Shown here piece by piece: positions 3,954-27,658 of a DNA stretch of 64,000 bases. Origin of the DNA: a virus; the IMG/VR virus record IMGVR_UViG_3300010389_002125, positions 3,254 to 67,253 of that record. The stretch is one strand, 5' to 3'. Made by a program: the position numbers and the translations under genes. Every line of letters begins with the position of its first letter. Positions within the stretch are counted from its first letter, which is position 1. The notes under the pieces are model-generated. The model did no database searches and was not told the DNA's origin. It worked only from the letters and a program-made list of their open reading frames with translations.

Positions 3954-4586
3954 ATGGCAGCAACAGGTTTAATAAAAAATTTAGGTAAAAGAGCAGGCAG
4001 TTCCTTAACAAGAGCAGGCAGTGCCTTAACATATGGAGGAGGATCCCCAAGAGGACTTGCTGCAATAGGCGCTGCCGCTTTTGCAGCTGGCGTAATTAAT
4101 GAAGCTGGTCCAGCAGCAAGAGATGCGGCCTTTGAATCAACCCTGGGAACATCTGATGCAGATAGGTATTTTACTGGAAGAAAATTTAGTACAAGATTTT
4201 TAGCTGGAACAGCAATGGGCGGACCTTTAGGAGGAGCCCTTCAGTCAACTGCTCCTAGTGACATGCTTGCTACAGGTAGTGCAGCAGTGACCGGAAACCC
4301 TGTCGGATATGCTGCAGGAGGATCTGCCATCGGTGCCCTTACAGGCGGTGGAGTTGCAGCTTTGGCTGGTACAGGTTTTAAAGGTAAAGCTCTTGGAGCT
4401 ATAGGCGGTGCTATTGTTGGTGGGGCAGTAGGCGGATCGCTCCCATTTGCTGCGGCAGGTCAATACGCTAGATCCAATAAAGAATTTTTCTCTCAATCCC
4501 CATACGGAAGAAGTACAGCTAACAATGACCTATCTGCTGTAGGTGACATAGTTTTAGGCATGCACAATTCTAGAAGAGGTTACTAA
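3954..4586 (+). CDS. Gly/Ala-rich glycine-zipper membrane-type protein, probable internal virion protein
   Basis: Several GxxxG hydrophobic stretches (GLAAIGAAAFAAG; GALTGGGVAALAG; GAIGGAIVGGAVGG); AAGGA SD. Confidence 0.6.
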   Translation: MAATGLIKNLGKRAGSSLTRAGSALTYGGGSPRGLAAIGAAAFAAGVINEAGPAARDAAFESTLGTSDADRYFTGRKFSTRFLAGTAMGGPLGGALQSTAPSDMLATGSAAVTGNPVGYAAGGSAIGALTGGGVAALAGTGFKGKALGAIGGAIVGGAVGGSLPFAAAGQYARSNKEFFSQSPYGRSTANNDLSAVGDIVLGMHNSRRGY

Positions 4587-10632: not shown

Positions 10633-12714
10633 ATGGCTATTATTAGGAAAAGAATAGAAAATTTAAAAGCTGGTAAAGATTATATTTTAAGTGTTCAGGC
10701 AAAAAATTCAGACTTAAACACAGCTAATGATCCGCTAGCTGCCATTAGATTTACAGTTCCCAGAGATGGAACCGTCCCTGCCGATATTCAAAATCTTCAA
10801 TTACGTGCATCTTATGAAAATGTTATGTTTGTTTTTGATTTTGGTCAGGAAGAAGATATATCACACTATGCTTATGAGTTGTATAATGCTAATGAAGCTA
10901 CTGAAGCTAATTTAGTTTCTGCTGGCATAAATCCAGCTAATGTTTTTACGGTATCTGTAGCCAACAGTTCTCAGGTAGCAGGTCAGTCACCAGTTTGGAG
11001 AGATTATTGGGGTAGGGTAAAAGCTATTGATACATCTGGGAATGAAAGTAATTGGACTCCTCTGATTCAGACTGATGAAAGTACTCCTCTTATTGATGAG
11101 CAATTTATAAGTAGCCTCACTGCAAGCAAAATAACTGCAGGAACAATTGGGGCTCATACTATAACTTTAAATGGTGCAAATTCTATATTGCAATCTTCTA
11201 ATTTTTCTACAGGTTCTACTGGTTGGCAAATTAAGGGTGATGGAACAGCGGAGTTTGATTCTCAGTATATTAGAGGCAACCTTGATGCAGGTAGTGTGAC
11301 AATAGGGGGTGGAACCTATAATTACTGGAATAAAACGGGGGCAGAAAATGATTTCAGAGTCGGTGATGACTCAACTTACGTACTATGGGATAATAGTGCT
11401 GGAACGTTAACTGTTGCTGGTGATGTATCAATTAGTGGTACTCTTAATTCCGCTGACGGAACATTTACCGGGACACTTAGCGCTGTAGATGGCACTTTCT
11501 CCGGAACACTTTCTGGAGTAGGTGGAACGTTTACGAGTAATGTAGTTGTCGGTGAACATCCAACTAATAAGATAACTATAGCATCAGATGCAACTGATAC
11601 TGGAACAAAAATATATGCGGGTGTAGGGACTTATAATAATTCAAATACAGGTTTTTACATTGATGCAAGTGGACAGTTTTCATTGGGAAATAAATTAGCT
11701 TTTGATCAAGCTTCAGGCTTACTTAATTTGAATGGTACTCCATCTGGTGCGTCTTCTGATTTAATTATAGAAGGAGCTATAATTAGAACGGTTCAAGATG
11801 TAGACGATGTTGGATCTACATCGGATGGCGTTGTCTTGACAGAGAATGACATATTTTTATATAGCAGGACTACTGATGAGTCTGCAATTAAATTTCAGGG
11901 AAGTACAAATAATATAGCTAAAATAATATCTGAAATTAAAGGAATACAACTAAGCGCAACAAATTCTCAAGGTTCACCTAAGTTCCAAATTGGTACCGAC
12001 AATACATCAACTGAGAATTATCTCATGTATAAGTGGTATGGGTATAGTGGCGCTGAGGCAATGACTTTATATCGAAATGGTTCTTCTAATCCAAATATTT
12101 TAGATATAAAAAATAACACATCTCAAATAAAAGTTGGCAGCATTCAACTTAAGAATGAAGGTACTGCTTCAGATTTATCCATCAATTGGGATGAAGACAC
12201 AGATAGCGGTATTTATAGGTATAACCCTGGGGATAGTAGTACTGGTGTTTCTTTAGTTGCTCAAGGAATACAAACACTTTTCGCAGCGTCTTTTGTTGGA
12301 AGTAGTGATTCTTTTGTTTACATGAATACACCTACTACAACGACTACATCTGGATATAGTTTTCTATTACGCAGTAATACGTATGGAACGATATCTAATT
12401 ATACATCTTCTAGAGATTTGAAAGAAAACATAACTGAAGTTACTGATGTTGGATCTTTTTTTGATGAGGTCAAACCAGTAACATTTGTCCCGAAGGCTCC
12501 AGAAAATGAAACGGAAGATAATAAAACCCTAAGATTGGCTGACATTCAGCACGGTTTTATAGCAGAAGATATAGCTGAAATATTTGATGGAAGGTTGGCT
12601 ACTTATGATGCAGACCTGAATCCAAATGGGTGGAGATGGCCAGATATGGTAGCTGTTTGTGTTGCTGAGATAAAGAGTTTGCGTAAACGAGTTGCGCAGC
12701 TAGAATCGCTATGA
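10633..12714 (+). CDS. Tail fibre/spike protein with N-terminal FnIII-like domains and C-terminal intramolecular chaperone (peptidase S74)
   Basis: YWGRVKAIDTSGNESNW (FnIII), SLTASKITAGTI and GWQIKGDGTAEF (central-fibre-like), 11-aa GTLxxxxGTF repeats, S74 signature SSRDLKENI...HGFIAEDI...terminal coiled coil. Confidence 0.8.
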   Translation: MAIIRKRIENLKAGKDYILSVQAKNSDLNTANDPLAAIRFTVPRDGTVPADIQNLQLRASYENVMFVFDFGQEEDISHYAYELYNANEATEANLVSAGINPANVFTVSVANSSQVAGQSPVWRDYWGRVKAIDTSGNESNWTPLIQTDESTPLIDEQFISSLTASKITAGTIGAHTITLNGANSILQSSNFSTGSTGWQIKGDGTAEFDSQYIRGNLDAGSVTIGGGTYNYWNKTGAENDFRVGDDSTYVLWDNSAGTLTVAGDVSISGTLNSADGTFTGTLSAVDGTFSGTLSGVGGTFTSNVVVGEHPTNKITIASDATDTGTKIYAGVGTYNNSNTGFYIDASGQFSLGNKLAFDQASGLLNLNGTPSGASSDLIIEGAIIRTVQDVDDVGSTSDGVVLTENDIFLYSRTTDESAIKFQGSTNNIAKIISEIKGIQLSATNSQGSPKFQIGTDNTSTENYLMYKWYGYSGAEAMTLYRNGSSNPNILDIKNNTSQIKVGSIQLKNEGTASDLSINWDEDTDSGIYRYNPGDSSTGVSLVAQGIQTLFAASFVGSSDSFVYMNTPTTTTTSGYSFLLRSNTYGTISNYTSSRDLKENITEVTDVGSFFDEVKPVTFVPKAPENETEDNKTLRLADIQHGFIAEDIAEIFDGRLATYDADLNPNGWRWPDMVAVCVAEIKSLRKRVAQLESL

Positions 12715-12720
12715 TAAAAT
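12692..12720 (+). promoter_or_regulatory. sigmaA/sigma70-like promoter upstream of two small ORFs
   Basis: TTGCGC (12692-12697), 17-bp spacer, TG-A-TAAAAT extended -10 (12712-12720). Confidence 0.55.
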
Positions 12721-12744
12721 CACATTTCTAGTAAGGAGTAAGAT

Positions 12745-12921
12745 ATGAATGATTTAGATGTCAATATATTAATTCAAGTTTTTAATGAAAAAATATCGTC
12801 TTTAATGACAGAGATAGTGGTAAAAGATGCGACTATACGTCAGTTATCTTCTCAAATTGAAGCGACCCAAGCAGAGCATGTAAAAACTGAAGTAAAGAAA
12901 AAAGAAGAAGATTTTAAGTGA
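12745..12921 (+). CDS. 58-aa small coiled-coil protein (below the ORF-track cutoff)
   Basis: Strong SD TAAGGAG, ATG at 12745, MNDLDVNILIQVFNEKISSLMTEIVVKDATIRQLSSQIEA...FK, TGA 12919-12921. Confidence 0.75.
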   Translation: MNDLDVNILIQVFNEKISSLMTEIVVKDATIRQLSSQIEATQAEHVKTEVKKKEEDFK

Positions 12922-12928
12922 GGTTATA

Positions 12929-13138
12929 ATGTCAGAGAATAATGAAATAGATACTACAGATTTGTCAGAAACACCTGAGGTAAAGACTGAGTTTTCAATA
13001 GAGATTAATATCTCTAACGCAAATCTTTCGTATAGAAGTGATTTCCCAGAAGGTGAAACAGTTTTCTGGTTGGAGTCTGTAAAGAATTTAATTATAAAGA
13101 ACACTTTTGAAAACAACAATATCGCAGAACAAGCGTAA
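12929..13138 (+). CDS. 69-aa acidic hypothetical protein
   Basis: GAGG SD; fills the gap before the portal in the operon direction. Confidence 0.7.
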   Translation: MSENNEIDTTDLSETPEVKTEFSIEINISNANLSYRSDFPEGETVFWLESVKNLIIKNTFENNNIAEQA

Positions 13139-13148
13139 GTTGTAAAGG

Positions 13149-13167
13149 TATAAAAAATAACTACTAT
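13149..13167 (+). promoter_or_regulatory. Putative late promoter (TATAA-N8-TACTAT) for portal
   Basis: Same core motif recurs 29-50 nt upstream of six other structural starts. Confidence 0.5.
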
Positions 13168-13196
13168 TATACCTAGTTCTATTATTGGAGATTTAA

Positions 13197-14837
13197 ATGG
13201 CCGTACGTGACTACCTGCCATTCAGGCAATTAGATACAAAATCAACAAGTTCCTTGGAGGCTACTACATTAAGTGATGATCAAATTAGGTCAGTCAACAA
13301 GATAATGAAAGTAGCGGCTCTGGCTCTTGGTTATCAAGGTACAACGTACTACTATAATAATAGGACTAATTTTGAGCCATCTCCTTATAATTTTGATAGG
13401 ATTATACAGGCTGTAGATACTGACTCTTATGTTAAGCAAGCTGTCACTAAGTATAAAGAGTTATTCTGGAAAGAAGGATGGCAAATAGTAGGAGAAAATC
13501 CAGAAGCAGTTGAGTATCTATATCAAAGAATAGACTTTATGGAAATGGCTATGAAAAGACCATTTCTTGAATTTTTAATAGAAGTATCAGATCAGCTTTT
13601 AAAATTTGCTAATGCCTTTGTTGTTAAAGCACGTGGAGATTTAACAGGATATTTTCCTTCTTCTATATCTGCAATTAATGCTAGTGATACTTTAGTCGGA
13701 TATTATCTTATTCCAACAGAGCAAGTAAAGATACTTAGAGATAAGTATAATAAGCCAAAGTCCTATCAGCAGTCTACTGATCCATTGACCTATGCGCCTA
13801 CTGAGAAGGATCCTGTTTGGTCTGCAGACAGGGTTATTCATATGCACTTTGATAAGAAGCCAGGTAGAGCTTTTGGAACACCATTCTTATCGAATGTTTT
13901 AGATGATGTTGTTGCTCTTAGGCAAATGGAAGAGGATATTCAAAATCTTGTCCATAGGGAATTGTTTCCTTTATATAAGTATAGGATAGGGACGCCAGAG
14001 CAGCCAGCAGAACCAGATGAAATTCTAAAGGCGGCTTCAGAAATAGAAAGTATGAGAACAGAAGGTGGCTTAATACTTCCTCATCGTCATGATATAGATA
14101 TTGTAGGATCTAATAATCAGGCACTAGATGCAAGTGCATACATAGATCACTTTAAAGAAAGAGTTGCTGTCGGTTTAGGTGTTGCTCCTCATCATTTAGG
14201 AATGATGATGAATGGGGGTAATAGATCAGTTACCGAAAGACTTGATACAGCTTTGTATGACAAAGTCAAACAATATCAGAAAATATTTGCAGAGATAGTA
14301 AGAGTTCATATATTTAATGAGTTGCTACTAGAGGGTGGATTTGATCCAATAGCTACGCCATATAGTGATGGAACATCTGATAGATGTTATTTTAAGTTTA
14401 ATGAGATAGATGTTGACACTCAAGTTAAGAAAGAAACTCATGTTATACAGAAGTATGTAAATTCTGTGATAACTCTTTCTGAAGCAAGAACTCAGCTAGG
14501 TGTTGATCCAGAAGCTGATATGGATGGGCTATTTCAAAGTATTCAGGCTGATACTCAAATGAAAATTCAACAGGCTCAGATGTCTATTAAGTCTGGAACA
14601 GATGTGCAGAGAGATGGAGATAAGCAGCAGTCAGCTAGTTCTGGTCAAAGAAATTTACCAAATAACAGAAGAGGTGTTGGCAATGCAGTCCGTCCTGCTA
14701 ATCAGCAGGGTAGAAGAACTTCTCCTGATATTAAAAGGGCAGATAGCAATCTTTTGAGCACTGTTGAAAGTTTGCTGGATGAAGAGTATAATATAGTTTA
14801 TATTGATGAAAAAAATGAGGAAAGTGAAAATAAATGA
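13197..14837 (+). CDS. Portal protein
   Basis: Size and position; QLLKFANAFVVK, RVIHMHFDK...AFGTPFL, VAVGLGVAPHHLG, ITLSEARTQLG are portal-like patterns. Confidence 0.88.
   Translation: MAVRDYLPFRQLDTKSTSSLEATTLSDDQIRSVNKIMKVAALALGYQGTTYYYNNRTNFEPSPYNFDRIIQAVDTDSYVKQAVTKYKELFWKEGWQIVGENPEAVEYLYQRIDFMEMAMKRPFLEFLIEVSDQLLKFANAFVVKARGDLTGYFPSSISAINASDTLVGYYLIPTEQVKILRDKYNKPKSYQQSTDPLTYAPTEKDPVWSADRVIHMHFDKKPGRAFGTPFLSNVLDDVVALRQMEEDIQNLVHRELFPLYKYRIGTPEQPAEPDEILKAASEIESMRTEGGLILPHRHDIDIVGSNNQALDASAYIDHFKERVAVGLGVAPHHLGMMMNGGNRSVTERLDTALYDKVKQYQKIFAEIVRVHIFNELLLEGGFDPIATPYSDGTSDRCYFKFNEIDVDTQVKKETHVIQKYVNSVITLSEARTQLGVDPEADMDGLFQSIQADTQMKIQQAQMSIKSGTDVQRDGDKQQSASSGQRNLPNNRRGVGNAVRPANQQGRRTSPDIKRADSNLLSTVESLLDEEYNIVYIDEKNEESENK
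14764..14792 (+). promoter_or_regulatory. sigmaA/sigma70-like promoter inside the portal 3' end, upstream of the 105-aa ORF and glycosyltransferase
   Basis: TTGAAA (14764-14769), 17-bp spacer, TATAAT (14787-14792). Confidence 0.55.
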
Positions 14838-15151
14838 AGATTAAGTTAACGAATGAGGCTCATGTATCCTATGCCAGGACTGACGATGCCTGCGAAGCTT
14901 TTAAAAAAGCTGTAGTAAACGGTCAGGCAAGACTAGCTCTTGAGATGATGGTTGATATAGTTGATTATATATCATCTTTAGGTGATTCAGAAGTAAAAGA
15001 TGAGACTGTGTCTGAGTCGCAGACTATTACAGCAAGTGAAGCTGTAAAAGAAGTAGAGCAAAAGCAAGCAACTAAAACTACTGCAAGAAAGCAAGCTGCA
15101 GCTAAGTCAAATCAACAAAAAGACGAGCAAAGTGGTCAAGAAGAAGAGTGA
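14834..15151 (+). CDS. 105-aa hypothetical protein with low-complexity K/Q/E tail
   Basis: ATGA overlap with the portal stop and GTGA overlap with the downstream GT start. Confidence 0.7.
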   Translation: MKIKLTNEAHVSYARTDDACEAFKKAVVNGQARLALEMMVDIVDYISSLGDSEVKDETVSESQTITASEAVKEVEQKQATKTTARKQAAAKSNQQKDEQSGQEEE

Positions 15152-15915
15152 AGCTTGTAATAGGTTGCCCAGTTTATAAAAGAGACTGGATTCTTCCACT
15201 GTGGATAAAGTATGTTAAGTCACAGGGTTTAAATTTTAAAGATGTAGGTTTTGTTTTTGAGGTTTCTCCTGATGATGAAAAAACTGTTTCTATCCTAAAG
15301 CAGTGGCGCGATGCAGATAAAAGCTTAGGGCTTTTTGATATCAATACAAGAGATGATATAGCTCATTTCTCACACAGAGACAATGGAAGGCAATGGACTC
15401 TTTCCAAGTATGAAAATATGGTTTCTTTGAGAAACTCTATCCTTAATAGGGTTAGGGAAATATCTCCAGACTATTACTTTAGTCTTGATTCAGACATCAT
15501 ATTAACTAATCCAAATACTATAAGATTGTTAACATCGCATATTGATGATGGCGCTAATGCTGTTAGTCCGTTGATGTTTATGACTCCAGTTGGTACAAAG
15601 TATCCAAGTGTTATGACTTGGAGAAAAGATGATCCAAACAGGGCATATAGAGAGTCTGATTATCCATTGGGAACTTATTTCAAATCTGACGTTATCATGG
15701 CAGCTAAAATGATGAGTAAAGACGTTTATGAAAATGTAGATTACTCAGTTCATAGGCAGGGTGAAGATGTTGGCTGGTCACTTTCTTGTAGGGAAAAAGG
15801 CTTTTCCCTGTACTCAGCTTCCTACATATATTCGGTACATGTGATGTCAGAGTTGGCATTAGAAGATATATCCAAAAATGGTGACACTAGAGAAAGAGTT
15901 CTTCAATCAATATAA
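15148..15915 (+). CDS. GT-A fold (GT2-like) glycosyltransferase
   Basis: N-terminal LVIGCPVYKR strand, LRNSILN helix, YYFSLDSDII (DxD), QGEDVGW catalytic-base motif, late His (YSVHVM). Confidence 0.85.
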   Translation: MKLVIGCPVYKRDWILPLWIKYVKSQGLNFKDVGFVFEVSPDDEKTVSILKQWRDADKSLGLFDINTRDDIAHFSHRDNGRQWTLSKYENMVSLRNSILNRVREISPDYYFSLDSDIILTNPNTIRLLTSHIDDGANAVSPLMFMTPVGTKYPSVMTWRKDDPNRAYRESDYPLGTYFKSDVIMAAKMMSKDVYENVDYSVHRQGEDVGWSLSCREKGFSLYSASYIYSVHVMSELALEDISKNGDTRERVLQSI

Positions 15916-15938
15916 ATTTGTATAAATTTGTTCAATGT

Positions 15939-15958
15939 TATAAAAACAAATTTACTAT
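15939..15958 (+). promoter_or_regulatory. Putative late promoter (TATAA-N9-TACTAT) for prohead protease
   Basis: TTACTAT at 15952-15958, 34 nt before the ATG; preceded by the direct repeat TATAAATTTG x2 (15911-15930). Confidence 0.5.
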
Positions 15959-15991
15959 AGTTATAGACTAAAAAGCAAAAGGTGTAATAGT

Positions 15992-17686
15992 ATGTCAATA
16001 GATTTTGTTGAAAGCTTTACTGTTCAACTCCCTGACTTTAAAGATTCGGATATAGACTTTTCTGAATCTTTTAATTCAAAGCACGGTTTGATTATTGAGG
16101 TCGCTGCCATTCATGAAGGTTTGACAGCTAACTACAATCATTACTCCGCTGAATCCCTAGAGGCAGCCTTGGAATCATGGGTTTCCCCTTACCCTAAGCC
16201 AATTATATTAAATCATGATCTAAATACAGAACCTATTGGCAGAGTTATGGCAGCCAAGATGGATAAAGAAGAAGATGGCTCTAGTTTTGTTCGACTTCAA
16301 ATAGCAATAACTGACCCAGTCGCCGCTCAAAAGGTTTTAGATAAAAGATATTTGACAGGATCTGTTGGCGGTAGAGCCGGTAAAGCGGTCTGCAGTATAA
16401 GTGGTGAAGATTTAGCTCAAGAAACAGATTCTGGTAGACCTCGCATACCTAAGTATAAGAGGGGTAAAGTTTACAAGGGTAAATTATCTTATATAGATAT
16501 GCAGGATATCTCTTTTAAAGAGTACTCTTTTGTTAATCAGCCAGCAGATCAAAAATCTGGAGTCAGAAGCACTTCTGTAAAAGATGGTTCAGCTGAAGTA
16601 GCTGATTCAGATAACTGGGTGGCGAAAAGCGCCGCTTTTGTACTTTCTATGGATACTGAAGATATTGTCTCTGTTCAGGAGAATGAGTCAATATTAAAAG
16701 GTATGAAGAAGAAAGAATCACGACCAGCTTACTTGCAGTTGAAAGGCGCGTTCTTAACCGCACTTGCTGCACAAGAGATGGAAAGTGACATTAGTAAGGA
16801 TGATTCATTACTATCTTATGAAGATTCCGAAAAAGTAAAATCTGAGGAGAATTCTATAATGGATGATGTTACCAAAGAAGAAGACATCTTAGCTGTGGCT
16901 ACTGGTCTCAGTGAAGATTTGTCTAGCATCACATCTTCCACTTCCGAACAGGATAGCGTGGAAGAGTCCCAGGATGCTGAAGCTGAGATGGGTGAATCAG
17001 AAGAAGAAGCTGTTGAGGCAGATTCTGAAGTTTCTGAGGAAACATCTGAAGAAGAGTCTCAAGCCACTACCGAAGAAGAGGTAGAGCAGGCTGAAGAGGC
17101 CAAAGAAGATTCTACTGACGATTCAGAAGAGGCGGATGTACAAGTTGTAGATTCCGAAAATGCTGGAGAGCCAGAAGAGGCATCGTCTGAGACTGTTGAA
17201 GTCGAAGATGATGAAGTTCAAGAAGAAGTTGCTCAAGACAGTGATCTCACCACAAACGAAAGTAGTGATGAGCAGGATATTGAGCAGTTGAAGGCTCAAG
17301 TCGCCCTTCTTGAAGAGCAATTCTCAACAGTAAAAGCTGAGAATGCAAAGCTCAAAGGCGCGTTACATATGACTCTTGTTGAAAGAGTTGTTGATACAAA
17401 GATCGCTTTGGGTATTGAGAGTATTGAGGATCGTGAGTCGTTGATTGGTGAGCATTCATCACGTACAGCTTCTTCACTGGCAGATAGTCTTAGAGATTTA
17501 GCTAAGACCCCTGCTGCTAGATCTACAGTACCTTCGTTGCCTGAAGTTATGTCTGAAGCTGAAGTTGTAGCTGAAGATAATGTTCTTACTATCGACTCTG
17601 ACGCAGTTCATGAAGAGCAACTCTCACCGCAAGAGCAGTTTGAGCAGCTTTTTGTTGACACGCTTATGGGTAGACGTAAACTCTGA
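15992..17686 (+). CDS. Prohead protease (HK97/herpes-type fold) fused to an acidic scaffold domain
   Basis: PIILNHD...PIGRV (His), YLTGSVGG (Ser), EYSFVNQPAD; C-terminal half very Glu/Asp-rich with coiled coil. Confidence 0.85.
   Translation: MSIDFVESFTVQLPDFKDSDIDFSESFNSKHGLIIEVAAIHEGLTANYNHYSAESLEAALESWVSPYPKPIILNHDLNTEPIGRVMAAKMDKEEDGSSFVRLQIAITDPVAAQKVLDKRYLTGSVGGRAGKAVCSISGEDLAQETDSGRPRIPKYKRGKVYKGKLSYIDMQDISFKEYSFVNQPADQKSGVRSTSVKDGSAEVADSDNWVAKSAAFVLSMDTEDIVSVQENESILKGMKKKESRPAYLQLKGAFLTALAAQEMESDISKDDSLLSYEDSEKVKSEENSIMDDVTKEEDILAVATGLSEDLSSITSSTSEQDSVEESQDAEAEMGESEEEAVEADSEVSEETSEEESQATTEEEVEQAEEAKEDSTDDSEEADVQVVDSENAGEPEEASSETVEVEDDEVQEEVAQDSDLTTNESSDEQDIEQLKAQVALLEEQFSTVKAENAKLKGALHMTLVERVVDTKIALGIESIEDRESLIGEHSSRTASSLADSLRDLAKTPAARSTVPSLPEVMSEAEVVAEDNVLTIDSDAVHEEQLSPQEQFEQLFVDTLMGRRKL
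16859..17686 (+). CDS. Nested in-frame scaffolding protein (275 aa) from an internal start
   Basis: GAGGAG SD at 16844-16849, in-frame ATG at 16859, TTACTAT at 16808-16814; start lies at the protease/acidic-domain boundary. Confidence 0.65.
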   Translation: MDDVTKEEDILAVATGLSEDLSSITSSTSEQDSVEESQDAEAEMGESEEEAVEADSEVSEETSEEESQATTEEEVEQAEEAKEDSTDDSEEADVQVVDSENAGEPEEASSETVEVEDDEVQEEVAQDSDLTTNESSDEQDIEQLKAQVALLEEQFSTVKAENAKLKGALHMTLVERVVDTKIALGIESIEDRESLIGEHSSRTASSLADSLRDLAKTPAARSTVPSLPEVMSEAEVVAEDNVLTIDSDAVHEEQLSPQEQFEQLFVDTLMGRRKL

Positions 17687-17705
17687 TTATCATAAGGAGA
17701 AATAA

Positions 17706-18458
17706 ATGAGTTTAGCAAAATTTCGTAAGGTACATAGCAAGACCGGTGCAGGTCGTTTCGTAGTTTCTGAGGGCATTGCTCCCAGCGCCTACCTACTTCC
17801 CGATCAGGGTCTTCCTACATGGTACTACGACAGTGAGGATGATCGCTTTGAGATCGTCGTCACTAAGGGTACCATACTTTCAGTCGTTGCCGATTCAAAC
17901 GGCGATGCAAGAATCGTTCCCGCTAATGGTACAGGTTCATCTGTAACTTGGGGCGATACAATGAGCGGTTGGGATCCACTTGATGGTGCTACTCCCAGCA
18001 GCACAACTGGGTCAACCGACACTGTGACAGTTGCCGCAGGGTCAGTTCCAATTGGCGCCGCTCAGTATGATCTCTACAGACCTTTTGATAAGGGCACATC
18101 GCAAGGTGCTGGCTTTATCACTCATGGTTACGTAGAGTATCCGATGGTTGATGGCCTTAACAATGACCTTGCAGTCGGTGACTTAATCCGCGCCGACCAC
18201 ATGGGTCGTCCTGTTGCATTTGATGCCTCCTCAGAGGCAGCTTATTTGCAGGTTGGTAAGGTTATCGAGGTCGAGAAGTTCGCTACGAATTTCGATGATG
18301 GCCTTCTCAGCTATATGCAGCTCCCATCTGATCCAGGTGCACTAAAGACTGTCTACGAGCTTACTCGTGATGGCGATTATAAGGGCAAGCTCGGTATTAG
18401 AGCAAACCTGGATGTTAATAACGTTGTTGGTGCATTCCGTGCCAACTTAACACTCTGA
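17706..18458 (+). CDS. Capsid cement/decoration protein
   Basis: Between scaffold and MCP; strong SD TAAGGAG; LAVGDLIRADHMGRPV...QVGKVI resembles beta-tulip cement proteins; codon bias like the MCP. Confidence 0.7.
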   Translation: MSLAKFRKVHSKTGAGRFVVSEGIAPSAYLLPDQGLPTWYYDSEDDRFEIVVTKGTILSVVADSNGDARIVPANGTGSSVTWGDTMSGWDPLDGATPSSTTGSTDTVTVAAGSVPIGAAQYDLYRPFDKGTSQGAGFITHGYVEYPMVDGLNNDLAVGDLIRADHMGRPVAFDASSEAAYLQVGKVIEVEKFATNFDDGLLSYMQLPSDPGALKTVYELTRDGDYKGKLGIRANLDVNNVVGAFRANLTL

Positions 18459-18491
18459 TAAAAATATTTACACAGGAGGAAAAATCCTAAG

Positions 18492-19550
18492 ATGAGTAAG
18501 ACAATCCAAGAGCTCCTCTCGGGTCTCCCAGCTTGGGAGGCTGCATTGACTGAGGACGGACACATCGATGAAGAGAATAGAGTAACAATTAAGGAAGCAT
18601 TTGCATCTCCTGATGCAGCTGCGTTGTTCCCTAAGGTTCTCTCTCGCACGCTGAGGGAAGCAGCTGAGCCACAACTACTTGTGACTCCTCTACTTTCCAC
18701 AGTTCGCCTCGGCAAGGGGCGCTCATTGGAGTTTCCAGCAGTCAACGCAATCCAAGCTGCCGAAATCCCTGAGGGTCAAGAGTACCCAGAGCAAGCACTC
18801 GCCTTCGCAAAGCAGGTAGAGGGCAAGGTCTCAAAGAAGGGCGTAAAGCTCGCCTTCACTGAAGAAGTCGTTGCTGACTCTCTTTGGGACATTGTTGGTC
18901 TACATGTCCGCGCCGCAGGCCGTGCTATGGCTCGACTCAAAGAGCAGATCGCTCTAAGCCGTTTCAAGGATGCAGCTACAGTCGTCTTCGATAATGACGA
19001 CGCCGGTTATGACAACACTTCAGGTCTCGATATTGATGGCGCAGCCAACGATACTGTTACCTGGGATGATATCATCGACATGGCTGCTGTTCTTATGGCT
19101 GAAAATCACATCCCAACAGACTTCATGCTTCACCCCTTGATGTGGTCGGTGTTCCTCAAGGACGCCATTTTCCACGCTGGTGGTGCTGCCTCTGGTGTCA
19201 ATCAGAGCTGGGGTTACCGTCCACAGTCAGCTGAGGGCGCACTCAATACAACAGCTCCAATGGGTCTGAACGTAATTGTTTCACCATTCGTAAGCTTCAC
19301 TGCTAAGAATGGCGCAACACCTGCTAAGTCAGACCTATTCCTCATTGACCGCAATGAGGTTGGGACACTCCTGGTTAAGGATGACATGAGCACAGATCAG
19401 TTTGATGATCCTACACGTGACATTCGCTCACTCAAGATGAAAGAGCGCTATGACATCATCATGCTCGGTGACGGTGAGGGTATCACTGTTGCTAAGAATG
19501 TCAGCCTTGCACGCAACTACGAGGTTATGGTCACAAACGAGGCCACCTGA
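18492..19550 (+). CDS. Major capsid protein (HK97 fold)
   Basis: AAEIPEGQEYP E-loop, KKGVKLAFTEEVVADSLWD, RAMARLKEQ spine helix, DFMLHPLMW, LKMKERYD; AGGAGG SD; followed by a strong terminator. Confidence 0.92.
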   Translation: MSKTIQELLSGLPAWEAALTEDGHIDEENRVTIKEAFASPDAAALFPKVLSRTLREAAEPQLLVTPLLSTVRLGKGRSLEFPAVNAIQAAEIPEGQEYPEQALAFAKQVEGKVSKKGVKLAFTEEVVADSLWDIVGLHVRAAGRAMARLKEQIALSRFKDAATVVFDNDDAGYDNTSGLDIDGAANDTVTWDDIIDMAAVLMAENHIPTDFMLHPLMWSVFLKDAIFHAGGAASGVNQSWGYRPQSAEGALNTTAPMGLNVIVSPFVSFTAKNGATPAKSDLFLIDRNEVGTLLVKDDMSTDQFDDPTRDIRSLKMKERYDIIMLGDGEGITVAKNVSLARNYEVMVTNEAT

Positions 19551-19589
19551 TAAAACCTTAGGGTTGTTATAGTTACGGATACCCTATGG

Positions 19590-19630
19590 CTAGGGGGCGG
19601 TGGAGAAATCTGCCGCCCCCTAGTTCTATA
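19590..19630 (+). terminator. Intrinsic terminator after MCP
   Basis: 15-bp stem CTAGGGGGCGGTGGA-GAAA-TCTGCCGCCCCCTAG (two G-U pairs) followed by TTCTATA. Confidence 0.8.
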
Positions 19631-19644
19631 TGGGCTTTTAGTTG

Positions 19645-19651
19645 TTACTAT
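19645..19651 (+). promoter_or_regulatory. Putative late promoter core TTACTAT just after the MCP terminator
   Basis: Intergenic, 34 nt before GTG 19685. Confidence 0.5.
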
Positions 19652-19684
19652 CAATACATGCGCTATGTTTTGGAGTGTGGTTAA

Positions 19685-20458
19685 GTGGCTTTTTCAACTT
19701 TAGTTAATAATTTTGTTGTTGGGATAAATAGTCTTCAAATAAAGTTTGTTCGTTCGGTGCAGATAAGTTCTCTTCTGGACGAGAATTTTGTCTTAACAAA
19801 AACAAGTGATCCATCTTCCCCTATAAGTTCACCATTTAGGGATATAAATACATTAATTCATTATAATTCAATAAGTCGTTCATTAACTTTATTTTGGAAT
19901 GTTGTACTAGATCCAAATACTGAATATACTGTTACGATAAATAATCTAAAAGATGGTGGAGGGTTAAGTATACCATCTGATAGTTTTAGTTTCACAACAC
20001 CAGAAACTTCAGCTACACCAAGTAGTTTAGTTGCTACTGGTACTGTTATTGAAGAAGTTTTAATTACAGATAAATCCGTAAAAGTAGATTTTGATACTGG
20101 CTATCAAATAATAGCAAAAAATCCTGAGTTTTATATAAAAGAAGTTCAGCCAGTTAATGGAGCTTTTTATATAGATAATGGAGAAAATGATGGAAGAGTG
20201 ATTATATCTTTCAATCAAAGACCGGCAAGTAACTATCTAAGCTCAAAGTATTTTAAGGTTCAGAGAAAGAAAATGCAGAGAGCACCTTCTAGATGGGAAA
20301 ATGTTACAACTCAGATATCTATGCATTCTTGGAAGCCTGATGTGTATATAGATTTTCCTTCTGATGATAGCACTCCAGTTTATTATATTGATGATAAAAC
20401 ATATTTTCAGACAGGATATAAATATAGGGTAATAGTTTCCTCGGAGGTTGGTGTTTAA
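19685..20458 (+). CDS. Virion protein with two Ig-like (Big_5-type) domains
   Basis: LDPNTEYTVTINNLKDGGG...FSFTT and FYIKEVQPVNG...VIISFN patterns. Confidence 0.65.
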   Translation: MAFSTLVNNFVVGINSLQIKFVRSVQISSLLDENFVLTKTSDPSSPISSPFRDINTLIHYNSISRSLTLFWNVVLDPNTEYTVTINNLKDGGGLSIPSDSFSFTTPETSATPSSLVATGTVIEEVLITDKSVKVDFDTGYQIIAKNPEFYIKEVQPVNGAFYIDNGENDGRVIISFNQRPASNYLSSKYFKVQRKKMQRAPSRWENVTTQISMHSWKPDVYIDFPSDDSTPVYYIDDKTYFQTGYKYRVIVSSEVGV

Positions 20459-20868
20459 TGGCTAATCAACTATATAAGGGAATCAAGGAAGATTTCTTGA
20501 ATGGAACAATAAATCTTTTATCAGTAAATTTACGCGTTGCCCTAGTTAAGAATGGTTATTCTATAGATATAGATAATGATCAGTATGTATCTGATGTTGG
20601 TTCGGAAAACATAGCTGCTAGAAGTAATATTTTAGAAAAAATATCAATAACAGATGGTATATTAGATGCTGAAAATGAAACCATAGAAAATTATGGGACA
20701 AGTGGTTTTGATTACCTAATAATCTATGAGTCTACTGGTGACGATAGCACCTCTAGGTTGATAGCTTATATTGATACTGGAGATGGTTTACCTGTAGCTA
20801 GTACTTCGGAAACTATTTCTATTACTATACAATGGAGCGATTTAGTTACAAAGATATTTAGCTTATAA
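20458..20868 (+). CDS. 136-aa virion structural protein
   Basis: LYKGIKEDFLNGTINLLSVNLRVALV...LDAEN...SRLIAYID...ITIQW resembles small minor structural proteins of tailed phages. Confidence 0.55.
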   Translation: MANQLYKGIKEDFLNGTINLLSVNLRVALVKNGYSIDIDNDQYVSDVGSENIAARSNILEKISITDGILDAENETIENYGTSGFDYLIIYESTGDDSTSRLIAYIDTGDGLPVASTSETISITIQWSDLVTKIFSL

Positions 20869-24621: not shown

Positions 24622-24982
24622 TGTCAGGAGAACTTTTAGGCAGATATTGAAACAATGGGGCCATGATGTTCACATTCAAAGAATCTTAAGTAATGGAAAT
24701 TATTCTGATAAATTAGAGAGGGTAACAACAAGGCAGCTTGGACAAACTGGTGCTTTGAATGCAAATTCGGTTCAAGAATTAGAAGCAGGAGTTTTTACTA
24801 AGTATGATGCAGTTTATTATTTTGAATCTACTGTTAATCCTAAAGAAGGTGATAGAATCTATGAGTCTGTATCTGTTAAGGTGAATAAATCATCAACTCG
24901 ATTTAGAATAGATACCGCAACTGGAATTAGAGGTAGGCTCGGTAAGATTGATTACTGGATAGTTGGAGCCACAAGAGAATGA
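24614..24982 (+). CDS. Head closure/stopper protein
   Basis: ILKQWGHDVHIQR...YYFESTVNPKEGDRI pattern; follows the adaptor. Confidence 0.6.
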   Translation: MIDVRRTFRQILKQWGHDVHIQRILSNGNYSDKLERVTTRQLGQTGALNANSVQELEAGVFTKYDAVYYFESTVNPKEGDRIYESVSVKVNKSSTRFRIDTATGIRGRLGKIDYWIVGATRE

Positions 24983-24989
24983 GACTAAA

Positions 24990-26582
24990 ATGATTAAGGT
25001 ATATAATAATCAAAAAGTGAATTTTAAGTTTGTTTTTGCGTCAGAACTTAATATATATAATCCGCTGTCTCTTTCTACTCCTAAAGAGGTAATTATAAAT
25101 GTTTATAGAGGTGATGGAACGTCTGGTTCTGTAGTAGCTGGTCCTTTTTCTTCAGTTTATCAAGATTCTGAGGTTAATGAAGATTCTTTTATATCCGAAA
25201 GCGTTTATGGTGAGATTGTTTTTTCATACAGAATCCCTACTACTCTTTTTGATGGATCATACACTGTACAGGCTACAGTAGAGGGCCCGGATGGGCGCTT
25301 ATTGAGGTCTTACTCTTATTTTCAGGTGGCTAAAACAGAAACATCTTTATCTCCTGTTGTAATGTCGAATAATACTAGTTCAGTGGTCAATTATAGACCT
25401 GAGTATAAGCAGCTATTAAGAACTAACCACAGCACACTGCTTCTGATAGGGCACGCTGATGGTGTTGAATTGAATCAACCTTTTAGAGTTAGAAGTATTC
25501 AACATGCTATTGATTCACTTGGTGCAGATTTTAACTCTCCTCTTTTGAGAGGAATATTGAACGCTTATGCAGCCGGTGCAACTGACATGGTGGCTTGTGC
25601 GGCAGCTCCTATGTATGAGTATGTTGACGACTTTAACTACAGACTTCAGTCTGGAAATGTTTTTGATTACCAGGGTAATTCTTTAAGTAAAACATTTTAT
25701 CAAAGATACTATGAAAGACTAGAGGATACATATGCAGCGATTGGTGAATTGGATTTTATAGATGTTGTTACCCCTTTGCAGGCATCGATAATAAGAACAG
25801 ATAGCTATGACTTTATAAGTCAGTTAGCTCAGTATTGTTATAATTTCAATGTTAATACTGGTTTTGTTCAGATGGGTGTTATTGGTTCTAGGACTAACGG
25901 ATTTAATTCTTTAGATGTTGATTTAATGGAACAAAACTCAGTTCTAAAAGATAAGCTTACCACTTACTCTGGTGGCTTGGTATCTTCTGATGTTGGTAGG
26001 TTTGTGGTCCCTATTTATGGAGAGTGTCTGTATAGTCATCCTCAAATAAGATACACCTACGTTGACTCAGTTGCTGCATCGTACGCAGCGATGCTGGTTT
26101 CAAATAATTTAGGAACTTCTTTAATAAGAAAAAGAGTTCCTGGAGCTATTTCTGCTTTTGGTTCAGATTTAAGTCATTCTGAATACTCAAGACTGGATGA
26201 TCTTGGTGTTAATACCATTTATAGGGGCAAGAAGACTAAGAGAAATATTGATTTTGAGGTGTATGTTACGAATGATTATACGCTAGCAAGAGCTGGAAAT
26301 ACTTTGCAGAAGGCGCAGCAGATGAGGTTAATGGCTAAATTAATTAATGAAGTAAAAGTATATGCGTCTCAAGCAATTGGGCGATTATCTTATGACGCAG
26401 CTAGTGATAAGGTTAGAAATATGTTAGACAATTTAGTATCGGATGGCGCGATAAACGATTACAGTTTCAATGTTAGTACTGATCCGTTAAGAATTGGATA
26501 TCTAATATTTGACATAGAAGTTTTGTCTTCTTTAGGTCTTAAGAAAATAGATTTTTCTTTGTCAGCAGGTCCGGGGGCATGA
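24990..26582 (+). CDS. Tail sheath paralog with N-terminal Ig-like domain (start probably ATG 24990 rather than TTG 24963)
   Basis: LLLIGHADG...AIDSLG...SPLLRGILNAYAAGA and C-terminal RLDDLGVNTI...MRLMAKLINEV...NMLDNLVSDGAINDYSF align by eye with the 414-aa sheath. Confidence 0.7.
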   Translation: MIKVYNNQKVNFKFVFASELNIYNPLSLSTPKEVIINVYRGDGTSGSVVAGPFSSVYQDSEVNEDSFISESVYGEIVFSYRIPTTLFDGSYTVQATVEGPDGRLLRSYSYFQVAKTETSLSPVVMSNNTSSVVNYRPEYKQLLRTNHSTLLLIGHADGVELNQPFRVRSIQHAIDSLGADFNSPLLRGILNAYAAGATDMVACAAAPMYEYVDDFNYRLQSGNVFDYQGNSLSKTFYQRYYERLEDTYAAIGELDFIDVVTPLQASIIRTDSYDFISQLAQYCYNFNVNTGFVQMGVIGSRTNGFNSLDVDLMEQNSVLKDKLTTYSGGLVSSDVGRFVVPIYGECLYSHPQIRYTYVDSVAASYAAMLVSNNLGTSLIRKRVPGAISAFGSDLSHSEYSRLDDLGVNTIYRGKKTKRNIDFEVYVTNDYTLARAGNTLQKAQQMRLMAKLINEVKVYASQAIGRLSYDAASDKVRNMLDNLVSDGAINDYSFNVSTDPLRIGYLIFDIEVLSSLGLKKIDFSLSAGPGA

Positions 26583-26583
26583 A

Positions 26584-27540
26584 ATGGTAATGAGGTATAA
26601 TACTTTTCCTAACTTTTCAGAATGGAATAGATTTCCTAAGAATCCTTTAGTGGCACCAGGGTTTAGTAGAACTAATTCTGAAGGTGTGGAAGAAATATAT
26701 TCTGGAGCTTTAAGTTATCTGGAATTCGTACAAATAGTTAAAAAAGTTTGGGAAGAACTTCATCCAGAAATCATAATGATTCCCTATAATCCAAACAGAG
26801 ATATAAGTACATCTTACAATGAAACTGTTGCAACAACTACATCTGCAAATGTTCCAGGACTTGTTCCATCAGATTATCCTCCAATAACTATTGGTTACTC
26901 ATTGGAGTTAAGAAAGCCTCATACTATGGACCCAAAGCCAAGAATGAGGAATCAAATGATTGACACTCAAGATAGATCTATAACTATTTATGGTCAGAAG
27001 TTTCAAAATATTGTTAGTTTCACAGTAATGGCTGAGGTTGGAACATTTTTTGGTCCCAATAAAGACCAGGTTTTAGATGACCAAGATGCTTCTGTTGTGG
27101 TTGATCAAATCATGGAAGAATTTGAATATTTTATGGTGGAGCATACTCCTATATTTAAAGCAGCTGGGGCGTCAGATTTGGTTTATGCAAGAAGGGTTTC
27201 TGACTCGGATCTAAATAAAGATGGTAAGGATATTCTTCAAAGACAAGTTATGTATATGTTAACAACAGAAAAGACTTATGCAATCGAGAACGCTAGGATT
27301 CAAAAAGTTGCTGTTGATGTAAGAACTTGGCTGAAAGACGCGTATTCTGCGACACCATCTTATCAGGTTGACGAAGTTGGGTCTGAAGAAATTATTAGAG
27401 ATTCTGAGACATATACTAGAGTTAACAGTATAGATAACGATGGGCATCCAACATATGAGGTTATTTCAGATTCAGAACTGATAATTAGAGACCATTTTCA
27501 AATGTCAACACCTGATGATTCTGCCACTCCAAGTAGCTAA
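26584..27540 (+). CDS. Tail terminator/completion protein
   Basis: Directly before sheath/tube; YGQKFQNIVSFTVMA...FEYFM...LQRQVMYML pattern. Confidence 0.55.
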   Translation: MVMRYNTFPNFSEWNRFPKNPLVAPGFSRTNSEGVEEIYSGALSYLEFVQIVKKVWEELHPEIIMIPYNPNRDISTSYNETVATTTSANVPGLVPSDYPPITIGYSLELRKPHTMDPKPRMRNQMIDTQDRSITIYGQKFQNIVSFTVMAEVGTFFGPNKDQVLDDQDASVVVDQIMEEFEYFMVEHTPIFKAAGASDLVYARRVSDSDLNKDGKDILQRQVMYMLTTEKTYAIENARIQKVAVDVRTWLKDAYSATPSYQVDEVGSEEIIRDSETYTRVNSIDNDGHPTYEVISDSELIIRDHFQMSTPDDSATPSS

Positions 27541-27596
27541 ATCTTTGTATAGAAATATATATATTTTTTTTTGAAAAAAGTATGGATGGTTGTTTT

Positions 27597-27616
27597 TATA
27601 AGTTCTTCGTTACTAT
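27597..27616 (+). promoter_or_regulatory. Putative late promoter (TATAA-N9-TACTAT) for the sheath/tube operon
   Basis: TTACTAT at 27610-27616 in a 118-nt AT-rich intergenic region; GGAGGT SD downstream. Confidence 0.55.
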
Positions 27617-27658
27617 ATTTAAAGATTCATAATCCTTAGCTGGAGGTCTTAAAACAAT

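Follow-up and report, generated by a model that had tools for sequence, protein, structure and literature searches.

A phage enzyme that glycosylates its own particle is already known from mycobacteriophages. Virion glycosylation changes antibody recognition in these phages and, to our knowledge, glycosylation of a phage particle has been shown experimentally only for a few of them. Virion O-glycosylation in Che8, Corndog and Myrna was reportedly described by Freeman et al. in Cell Host Microbe in 2023. Here we analyse 64,000 nucleotides (nt) of viral DNA (positions 3,254 to 67,253 of IMG/VR record IMGVR_UViG_3300010389_002125; the whole stretch is called the window, and its own numbering is used throughout), in which a 255-amino-acid (aa) open reading frame (ORF) for a glycosyltransferase (GT) lies in the head gene module. 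As in the mycobacteriophage systems, the proposal is that a cytoplasmic GT encoded by the phage glycosylates proteins in the head and tail of its own particle. Here, however, a single GT gene stands between the portal and protease genes of an uncultured marine 0305phi8-36-like myovirus, and the candidate acceptor is not the Ser/Thr C-terminus of capsid and tube proteins but an internal three-residue motif, Ala-Thr-Pro (ATP in one-letter code), in at least five kinds of virion protein. ATP is a sharply defined, statistically robust and virion-specific candidate acceptor motif across head and tail proteins; both the motif and the enzyme family are new here. The literature on phage virion glycosylation, subscription journals not covered, gave no description of the GT family, of this clade's GT or of the ATP motif.

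The analogy with mycobacteriophages, drawn in a preliminary description of the same DNA, holds for the kind of system and is otherwise loose. A tblastn search for GT relatives (E<=1e-3) in 50,697 phage records matched the archaeal virus PhiF1 alone, with no detectable sequence relation to the mycobacteriophage enzymes, and the capsid and tube proteins lack Ser/Thr-rich C-terminal tails. A mycobacteriophage-style C-terminal acceptor was rejected: the major capsid protein (MCP) ends in VTNEAT and the tubes in GSIYQD and VPPNVR, and the relatives differ. The only resemblance to those acceptors is the C-terminal ATP of a 318-aa structural protein (26584-27540).

A large uncultured myovirus is the source of the window, which represents its virion module, has all ORFs of at least 200 aa on the + strand and comes from a 67-kb record estimated to be 32% complete. 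The MCP shares 38-45% identity with its counterparts in Bacillus phages 0305phi8-36, KLEB27-3, Edson and WH1 and in Moorella phage MTATph1. The head region had no blastn match among cultured phages; near-identical DNA was found in metagenome runs (marine, estuary and seawater) from 10 studies. 'Moraphages' (PMC12619734) were rejected as the lineage of this phage, being T4-like. Four near-complete relatives (G001-G004, of which G004 is 100% complete) encode GTs 63-64% identical to that of the window, and five Firmicutes and Acinetobacter phages (0305phi8-36, KLEB27-3, MTATph1, ME3 and Edson) served as GT-less controls. The window proteins on which the motif could be followed across relatives are listed here.

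17706-18458, + strand: protein in the head decoration position, 250 aa; GATP at residues 94-97 (ATP at nt 17988-17996), Ser/Thr-rich stretch
18492-19550, + strand: MCP, 352 aa (PF25209, 5.4e-17); GATP at residues 274-277
19685-20458, + strand: immunoglobulin (Ig)-like (Big_5) virion protein (PF13205 at residues 15-105); SATPS at residues 109-113 (ATP at nt 20012-20020)
26584-27540, + strand: virion structural protein, 318 aa (phrog_20284); ATP at residues 256-258 and 314-316
27659-28903, + strand: tail sheath, 414 aa (phrog_16991, 6.3e-27); PATPS at residues 140-144 (ATP at nt 28079-28087)
61501-63999, + strand: large virion protein that runs beyond the window (phrog_21059); ATP at residues 68, 89, 227, 416 and 589

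Motif counts in the window covered 40 listed ORFs (20,974 aa) and were compared with 500 within-protein shuffles. D.ATP occurred 7 times versus 0.28 expected; none of the 500 shuffles reached 7 (maximum 3), and among gapped 4-of-5-mers with at least five occurrences in the window proteome it was the most enriched (25-fold, the next reaching 12.5-fold). Of all tripeptides seen 10 times or more, ATP itself takes first place in the window, in G001 and in G003, and second place in G002. In the virion modules it was observed 14 times versus 3.6 expected in the window, 27 versus 4.8 in G001, 25 versus 5.5 in G002, 25 versus 4.9 in G003 and 12 versus 4.8 in G004, and the extended form ATP[SN] 6, 13, 14, 13 and 7 times, respectively, with 0.5-0.8 expected in each. 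Outside these modules the excess disappears: the non-structural parts of G001 (25,827 aa) and G003 (34,314 aa) hold 5 ATP versus 6.0 expected and 7 versus 6.8, and ATP[SN] occurs there 0 times and once, respectively. The enrichment is therefore a property of virion proteins and not of composition.

The sites are also conserved. The decoration protein has ATP at the aligned site in 97 of 97 loci, and in all four near-complete relatives as well. Its variants LDGATP, MNGATP, TAGATP and LAGATP indicate that an Asp at -3 is common and not conserved. The preliminary description had given the motif as DxATP(S); a motif of this kind is indeed enriched and conserved in virion proteins of genomes with this GT, while the core has to be redrawn as ATP, often followed by Ser or Asn. 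In the Ig-like protein SATPS sits immediately behind the Ig domain. There ATP is kept in 73/73 loci (41-89% identity), while the residues on either side differ (TNSATPSI, GCGATPNT, VSAATPSE). The tail sheath keeps its ATP in 4/4 relatives, and the segment with the motif is absent, as an alignment gap, from the MTATph1 sheath. Both sites of the 318-aa protein are ATP in 4/4 relatives; the second lies 3 residues before the C-terminus, the window protein ending in TPDDSATPSS and those of the relatives in ATPN(T/V/S) or ATPRH. The protein starting at 61501 has ATP at sites 68, 89, 227 and 416 in every relative aligned (2-3 each) and at site 589 in one of two. Conservation is partial in the MCP (ATP in 35 of 82 loci), whose GATP loop is an insertion that falls in a gap in the alignments with KLEB27-3, MTATph1 and 0305phi8-36. 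The ATP of the portal, of ORF 252 and of ORF 32675 is conserved in 0/4 relatives each and is probably a matter of chance.

In the virion regions of the GT-less controls D.ATP was found in none of the five. ATP[SN] was observed once in 0305phi8-36, twice in KLEB27-3, once in MTATph1 and not at all in ME3 and Edson, and the ATP counts were 1 versus 1.05 expected (0305phi8-36), 4 versus 2.1 (KLEB27-3), 8 versus 3.7 (MTATph1), 4 versus 2.4 (ME3) and 7 versus 2.8 (Edson).

The GT gene and its surroundings are laid out as follows.

13197-14837, + strand: portal gene, 546 aa (phrog_9232 portal, E 6.8e-57); its stop overlaps the orf105 start (ATGA)
14834-15151, + strand: orf105, 105 aa; its ATG overlaps the portal stop (ATGA, 14834-14837)
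15148-15915, + strand: GT, 255 aa; its GTG start overlaps the orf105 stop (GTGA, 15148-15151)
15487-15495, + strand: DxD motif (D114-S115-D116), for metal and nucleotide-sugar binding; invariant in 61 sequences
15760-15768, + strand: xED motif (G205-E206-D207), candidate catalytic base at the start of helix 206-216; invariant in 61 sequences
15838-15840, + strand: H231, candidate C-terminal metal-binding His (C-His); invariant in 61 sequences
15992-17686, + strand: prohead protease/scaffold fusion, 564 aa; 39% identical to 0305phi8-36 gp123 over 187 aa, with a weak phrog_18299 match

Both junctions, portal/orf105 and orf105/GT, are 4-nt overlaps read directly from the sequence, and the portal is 32-34% identical to those of 0305phi8-36, KLEB27-3 and MTATph1. 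That an intact GT-A enzyme with DSD and GED motifs is inserted at this place, translationally coupled to a 105-aa ORF, had been proposed in the preliminary description and is borne out here; orf105 is in turn coupled to the portal gene. Searched against Pfam and PHROGs at E<=0.1 and again at E<=1, the window GT matched no family. A family of its own nevertheless surrounds it, with 418 proteins at E<=1e-3 among 657 candidates in a 90%-clustered protein database, 631 representative clusters at 50% identity (E<=1e-3; 365 of them at E<=1e-10) and 522 of 578 candidate stretches in IMG/VR. Twelve residues are invariant in an alignment of 61 sequences that reaches down to 28% identity (R12, W14, R95, N96, S112, D114, D116, Y199, G205, E206, D207 and H231). 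The AlphaFold2 (AF2) model built from this alignment scored 95.9 for the predicted local distance difference test (pLDDT) and 0.93 for the predicted template modelling score (pTM). DxD follows strand 109-113 in the model, GED opens helix 206-216 and H231 lies in the C-terminal part. The common core of GT-A enzymes includes DxD, xED and C-His, the Asp of xED at the start of helix alphaF being the catalytic base of most inverting enzymes (Taujale et al. 2020, PMC7185993). The model has the Rossmann-like GT-A fold, with DxD after the fourth core strand, and both xED and C-His. We have little doubt that the 255-aa ORF is a real GT-A enzyme gene, and take the enzyme as catalytically competent, since the three core elements are invariant and placed as expected in the model.

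Fold searches were made with Foldseek against PDB, with VIA-align as a second look and with a Foldseek-independent scan of 48,161 representatives, and their results agree. The best PDB matches are all GT-A enzymes or domains: residues 52-320 of COLGALT1 (Z 24.0, 237 residues aligned), residues 296-543 of LH3 (Z 21.3, 220 aligned), yeast Mnn9 (3ZF8; Z 20.9, 216 aligned) and residues 253-455 of mimivirus R699 (Z 18.9, 191 aligned). The GT1 domain of COLGALT1 (GLT25D1; 9EVJ/9EVK), the ~296-543 stretch of LH3 (PLOD3) and R699 253-455 have the best fold likeness, and all come from protein-glycosylating systems. The matched part of LH3 we take to be its AC accessory domain. COLGALT1 GT1 keeps DxD and binds Ca2+ and UDP-Gal structurally, without acidic catalytic residues, according to PMC12003778, the discussion of which backs the LH3 assignment only indirectly; in R699 a loop around residue 244 separates the leading catalytic domain from the accessory domain (PMC12279948). 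COLGALT1 is also the sole clear sequence match in PDB (E 2.6e-7, residues 44-141, covering the W..S.Y..M..LR..L helix and DxD), to which the family profile adds Mnn9 weakly (E 0.15). Unlike these domains, which belong to multi-domain proteins and are reported to be non-catalytic, the phage GT stands alone and keeps xED and C-His, at an identity of only 15%. To judge from sequence and model, the phage family looks like an intact, free-standing relative of the accessory-domain lineage of the collagen enzymes.

Among active enzymes the best fold match is Mnn9, which with Anp1 and Van1 makes up a group of yeast mannosyltransferases (CAZy GT62, Pfam PF03452) that are likewise metal-dependent GT-A enzymes. 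Members of GT62 are anchored in the Golgi membrane, where they extend the mannan of N-glycans. The phage GT, by contrast, is short and soluble, and 11% identical to Mnn9. PF03452 (Anp1) was matched by 36 of the 61 family members (best E 4.9e-8), although not by the window protein at E<=1; PF13704, which appears in precomputed labels of close relatives, and PF00535 were matched by 6/61 and 25/61 relatives, all weakly.

These likenesses could mean that the phage protein is a non-catalytic nucleotide-sugar-binding module that serves head morphogenesis as an assembly chaperone or scaffold partner. Its three best structural matches among collagen-type and mimivirus proteins are such inactive domains, and COLGALT1 GT1 keeps DxD and binds UDP-Gal without catalysis (PMC12003778, as above). 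The phage family, unlike GT1, retains an invariant xED at the helix start together with C-His, the active enzyme Mnn9 scores nearly as high (Z 20.9), and distant members of the family stand first in operons with further GTs, sugar methyltransferases and RmlD, a setting that suits an active enzyme. We regard a purely structural role as highly improbable.

The fold comparison also bears on a non-protein acceptor, such as phage DNA bases, a polymer of the host cell wall, a lipid carrier or a small molecule, with functions like the superinfection exclusion of prophage TarP or DNA hypermodification. Generic GT2-type enzymes scored lower than the matches above (RmlT, TarP, TarS, WrtF and SpsA, Z <=17.5, up to 18.5 by VIA-align), yet those acting on teichoic acid or polysaccharide (RmlT, TarP, TarS and SpsA) still reach Z 16-18.5, and a TET-associated GT appears at rank 47 in the viral fold library (BFVD). 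An oxygenase next to the GT in one locus, L115, has a weak second match to Tet_JBP (20 bits, cut-off 34.9), and a C5 DNA methyltransferase is flanked by GT2 genes in 3/5 relatives. On the other hand, the top 50 of each of three PDB fold lists contained no DNA base GT, so that the outcome named in the preliminary description as one that would refute it, DNA base GTs as nearest structural neighbours, did not turn up, and G004, although 100% complete and equipped with both GT and motif, has no C5 methyltransferase, which makes the head-module GT independent of the C5 methyltransferase cluster. Thymidylate-synthase-like (hydroxymethylase) homologs were found in 0/5 relatives. Inspection of the 255-aa sequence revealed neither a membrane segment nor an extra domain. 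It would moreover be hard to see why an enzyme of host glycans should keep one position, between portal and protease, in over 100 loci. A non-protein acceptor is thus unlikely in our estimation, if less so than a structural role.

In separate clusters of the relatives, the C5 DNA methyltransferase lies among GT2 genes (G001:C1:289-1957, G002:C1:147077-150906 and G003:C1:92684-96264). These clusters may serve DNA hypermodification, apart from the head-module GT.

The position of the GT was followed in 80 loci fetched via the GT itself (62-89% GT identity), with neighbours scored only where a locus was long enough to contain them. The order portal-orf105-GT-protease/scaffold-decoration-MCP was found in 80/80 of them. 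In a second sampling through the decoration protein, made without reference to the GT, the same order with the GT was present in 37/37 loci with at least 3.6 kb upstream, out of 72 new loci. IMG/VR stretches encoding the GT and the decoration protein are similarly numerous (522 and 496, respectively). In 0305phi8-36, KLEB27-3, MTATph1 and Acinetobacter phage ME3, by contrast, the portal directly precedes a gene of protease/scaffold size with no GT between, and the gene sizes of Edson, none of whose genes carries a name, fit this direct pattern. Being fixed in the clade loci sampled and absent from the four annotated cultured relatives, the orf105-GT pair is an old, fixed insertion that marks the aquatic clade. 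A single-gene form of the GT, fixed as an orf105-GT unit in a very widespread marine and freshwater clade, is new here.

The partner gene orf105 is confined to this clade, where tblastn found it in 80/80 GT loci, always directly upstream of the GT. Its N-terminal ~55 aa are conserved and helical, with NGQxRLAL and with V27, N29, Q31 and L34 invariant in the orf105 alignment, and its C-terminal tail is variable and acidic/lysine-rich; 66 distinct sequences were collected. It matched nothing in Pfam or PHROGs, and the protein Atlas was uninformative. As a universal partner of the GT family it was rejected, the small ORFs upstream of distant GTs being resolvase- or HNH-like and not orf105 homologs. 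A complex prediction of the GT with orf105 residues 1-60 scored 0.00 in two runs, which gives no answer either way on binding.

Distant members of the family offer a second comparison. Those 30-50% identical to the window GT form 23 clusters at 60% identity, one of which, with 47 loci, is the window's clade. Of the 22 representatives of the remaining clusters, 19 are followed directly by ORFs that match more GT models (GT2, GT7C-like, GT11), the rest being L099, L131 and L163, a short contig of a metagenome-assembled genome (MAG). The cassettes hold 2-4 further GTs, including GT11 fucosyltransferase-like ones (L083-L144; for example L084:7001-9705, L095:2914-5879 and L091:6986-11088), and several loci also carry FkbM- or CmcI-type methyltransferases or RmlD, so that the GT here heads a multi-GT plus methyltransferase cassette as in mycobacteriophages. 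The cassettes come immediately after genes of the Holliday-junction-resolvase type: the ORFs before them are RusA-, RuvC-, endonuclease VII- or HNH-like, or of no known type. In 22/22 representatives the sugar block opens with the family member, the place that would be expected of a priming enzyme. A profile search of genome contigs with a narrower alignment found only 3 MAG contigs (one of Solirubrobacteraceae, two of Saccharibacteria), and a tblastn search with P0139, a member of a distant subfamily, had no match in the 50,697 phage records. The 842-aa fusion protein P0134 contained no informative extra domain.

In three contigs of this second lineage ATP is about 2-fold enriched proteome-wide (15 versus 7.0 expected in G005, 25 versus 11.7 in G007 and 10 versus 5.6 in G009). 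It accumulates in fibre-like proteins, single ones of which have 6, 5 and 4 sites, and recurs at the same alignment column in proteins next to the tape-measure gene that are 40-63% identical, namely those of ~190 aa and ~410 aa in G005, G007 and G009 and one of ~170 aa in G007 and G005. These three contigs, read whole and all GT-bearing, are the strongest hint that the GT family and the motif go together.

They also weigh on the possibility that the GT glycosylates virion or assembly proteins such as the portal, the scaffold or orf105, with ATP being unrelated to it and instead a site for another GT, a host enzyme or a kinase, or a structural turn. That the gene lies in the head module, coupled to orf105 and the portal gene, would fit a local acceptor, orf105 and the scaffold have long Ser/Thr/Glu/Lys-rich tails, and other GT2 genes exist in the complete relatives. 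Yet a second lineage, which has nothing but this GT family in common with the clade, shows ATP sites as well, the enrichment is confined to virion proteins, and no alternative writer has been identified. That the motif has nothing to do with the GT is a reading we likewise hold to be unlikely, by a shade more than a non-protein acceptor.

Certain head loci of the clade also contain a 2-oxoglutarate (2OG)-Fe(II) oxygenase of the prolyl-hydroxylase-like family PF13640, directly after the GT and ahead of the protease in 4 of 110 (L115:7781-8359, L110, L111 and L112) and, as a related gene, ~2.9 kb upstream of it in five more (L120-L122, L124 and L126, at about 4108-4359). An oxygenase beside the GT recalls the pairing of hydroxylase and glycosyltransferase in collagen modification. 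In G001 and G003 a GT2 gene also adjoins PF13640 oxygenases elsewhere.

From this neighbourhood a two-step reaction can be imagined in which a PF13640 oxygenase hydroxylates the Pro of ATP and the GT then glycosylates the hydroxyproline, as happens with collagen hydroxylysine. The nearest relatives of the GT in sequence and fold belong to the collagen hydroxylysine-glycosylation machinery, Thr and Pro of the motif are equally invariant, and all four near-complete relatives searched carry one or two PF13640 genes; the adjacent and upstream copies just described speak for it too. But direct adjacency is limited to one near-identical lineage (the 4/110), no oxygenase was found in the window's 67-kb record, which is 32% complete, PF13640 genes are common in aquatic phages in any case, and the collagen-enzyme domains matched are the non-catalytic ones. 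We judge hydroxyproline a decidedly improbable acceptor.

We favour a cytoplasmic O-glycosyltransferase of virion proteins that acts at ATP, a reading in which we place about as much belief as doubt; the link between GT and motif is one that we infer from their co-occurrence. Under it, the infected cell would produce the GT from the portal-orf105-GT unit, its translation being coupled to that of the portal gene, and a conserved internal sigma-70-like promoter would probably contribute as well. It would be a soluble enzyme dependent on metal and nucleotide sugar, and would transfer a sugar to the Thr of short, exposed Ala-Thr-Pro segments, usually followed by Ser or Asn. These would lie in loops, linkers and C-terminal tails of decoration, Ig-like, sheath, sheath-adjacent and baseplate/fibre proteins, so that the assembled particle would carry sugars on head and tail, as a coat that may serve for shielding or adhesion.

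Several observations count against this proposal. Mild ATP excesses exist in GT-less MTATph1 and Edson (8 versus 3.7 and 7 versus 2.8), of a size that shuffles also reach. The GT is present throughout the genomes of the clade, leaving no loss event to compare, and because the controls sit on other branches the GT-less contrast corresponds to one or two independent events, with the second lineage in addition. In that lineage the GT lies outside the head module, behind resolvase genes. The complete relatives carry 3-5 other GT2 genes and 1-2 PF13640 oxygenases whose products might write the motif, and another GT2 of these relatives, or a host enzyme, could be its writer. The three best structural matches (COLGALT1 GT1, LH3 and R699) are non-catalytic accessory domains and the window GT matches no Pfam model. 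Finally, the ORF sets behind the motif counts come from a simple caller (at least 60 aa, greedy by length) and are not curated gene calls.

Expression of the GT was considered from two non-coding signals.

14764-14792, + strand: promoter candidate TTGAAA-N17-TATAAT, sigma-70-like; inside the portal 3' end, 42 nt before the orf105 start
15911-15959, + strand: conserved non-coding element in the gap between GT and protease/scaffold; TATAAATTTG twice, then TTGTTCAATGTTATAAAAACAAATTTACTATA

The promoter candidate lies within the last 25 codons of the portal gene. It agrees with the consensus at 11 of 12 positions, better than any other of the 27 promoter-like sites in 12500-20500. As shuffles give a mean of 19.4 sites with at least 9 of 12 consensus positions in this interval, only the quality of the site stands out and not the number of sites. 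The exact word TTGAAA-N17-TATAAT occurs twice in the 64-kb window, at 14764 and 30367; with up to one mismatch there are 5 matches versus 1.69 expected, a number reached by 3 of 100 shuffles. The copy at 30367-30395 is likewise located near the end of a gene, the 3' end of a tail-tube-like ORF (29700-30482), and shortly before the start of ORF 30472-31452.

TTGAAA-N17-TATA[AC]T is found at the same place in 20 of 21 relatives (15 with TATAAT, 5 with TATACT). The word overlaps a conserved portal peptide, (V/I)E(S/N)..L....Y(N/T), and this protein constraint explains part of its conservation. However, the wobble bases of the hexamers (Val/Ile-T, Glu-A, Tyr-T and Asn/Thr-T) are invariant in 20/20 aligned sequences, whereas the next downstream Tyr codon is TAC in 5/15 and nearby Val, Leu, Asp and Glu codons vary freely. 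Such a pattern fits selection on the DNA word itself, with a putative promoter function. The word had been noted upstream of orf105 and the GT in the preliminary description and is indeed there, but the further proposal that the GT is expressed ahead of the structural proteins found no support: its translational coupling to the portal gene via orf105 argues that GT and orf105 are made together with the late proteins.

The second signal, ~45 nt long in a GT-protease/scaffold spacer of 76 nt, is recognisable in 18/18 relatives inspected, down to ~62% GT identity (flanking genes ~62-67%). It is a single copy in the window, 0 of 100 shuffles match it, and Rfam had no family for it and nothing on 14600-16200. 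It is probably a promoter or regulatory site of the head-protein genes from protease to MCP. As a repeated promoter word TATAAATTTG was rejected, with 14 matches in the window versus 13.8 expected. With a promoter candidate of their own and a second element before the protease, orf105 and the GT are likely to be under a control separate from that of the protease-to-MCP block. In 13200-19600, RNA contigs from two marine metatranscriptome runs match part of the portal gene as well as the scaffold 3' end, the decoration gene and the MCP; they leave 14698-16409 uncovered and carry neither starts nor levels, so the gap is no evidence.

The single match in the phage records, ORF15 of Methanobacterium virus PhiF1 ('putative glycosyltransferase', MK994522.1), is 25.5% identical over 91% of the query (E 9e-7). 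In MK994522.1 11927-18717 the order is large terminase, portal (phrog_9232, as in the window), GT, a small ORF, a protease-like gene and MCP. PhiF1 differs in being an archaeal virus of 74 kb without an orf105 homolog, and its 2 ATP versus 0.67 expected in 3,801 aa are too little sequence for a motif comparison. The shared portal-GT-protease-MCP arrangement hints at an old link between the head modules.

Two further features of the window concern its tail genes. Tandem sheath-like genes of 539 aa and 414 aa, both matching tail-sheath PHROGs, occupy 24963-28903, and KLEB27-3 and MTATph1 are annotated likewise. Behind the tail genes, 32675-56632 holds three giant virion ORFs of 2188, 1837 and 3803 aa, the last of which is related to giants of ME3, KLEB27-3 and MTATph1 labelled 'baseplate hub', 'putative baseplate' and 'endolysin'.

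A wider statement, which we offer tentatively and consider somewhat on the improbable side, is that ATP is the three-residue sequon of a family of small soluble phage GTs, intact relatives of the accessory domains of COLGALT1, LH3 and R699, that primes virion glycosylation in at least two unrelated lineages. In 0305phi8-36-like phages of marine and fresh waters the family would work by itself within the head operon, and elsewhere as the first gene of multi-GT cassettes. If so, it would represent a portable, cytoplasmic, sequon-directed form of protein O-glycosylation, which some lineages may couple to proline hydroxylation by an adjacent 2OG oxygenase. The favoured reading, if right, would provide a testable sequon for phage O-glycosylation and a compact enzyme-and-tag pair of possible use for glyco-engineering in the bacterial cytoplasm. 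The GT would also be a functional, presumably ancestral-type relative of the inactive GT1 and AC domains of human collagen-glycosylating enzymes. With one small enzyme and a defined Ala-Thr-Pro site, aquatic phages of a very abundant group (~500 IMG/VR contigs) would then sugar-coat head and tail, which would be a reason to look for glycans in work on the surfaces, adsorption, grazing and decay of marine viruses.

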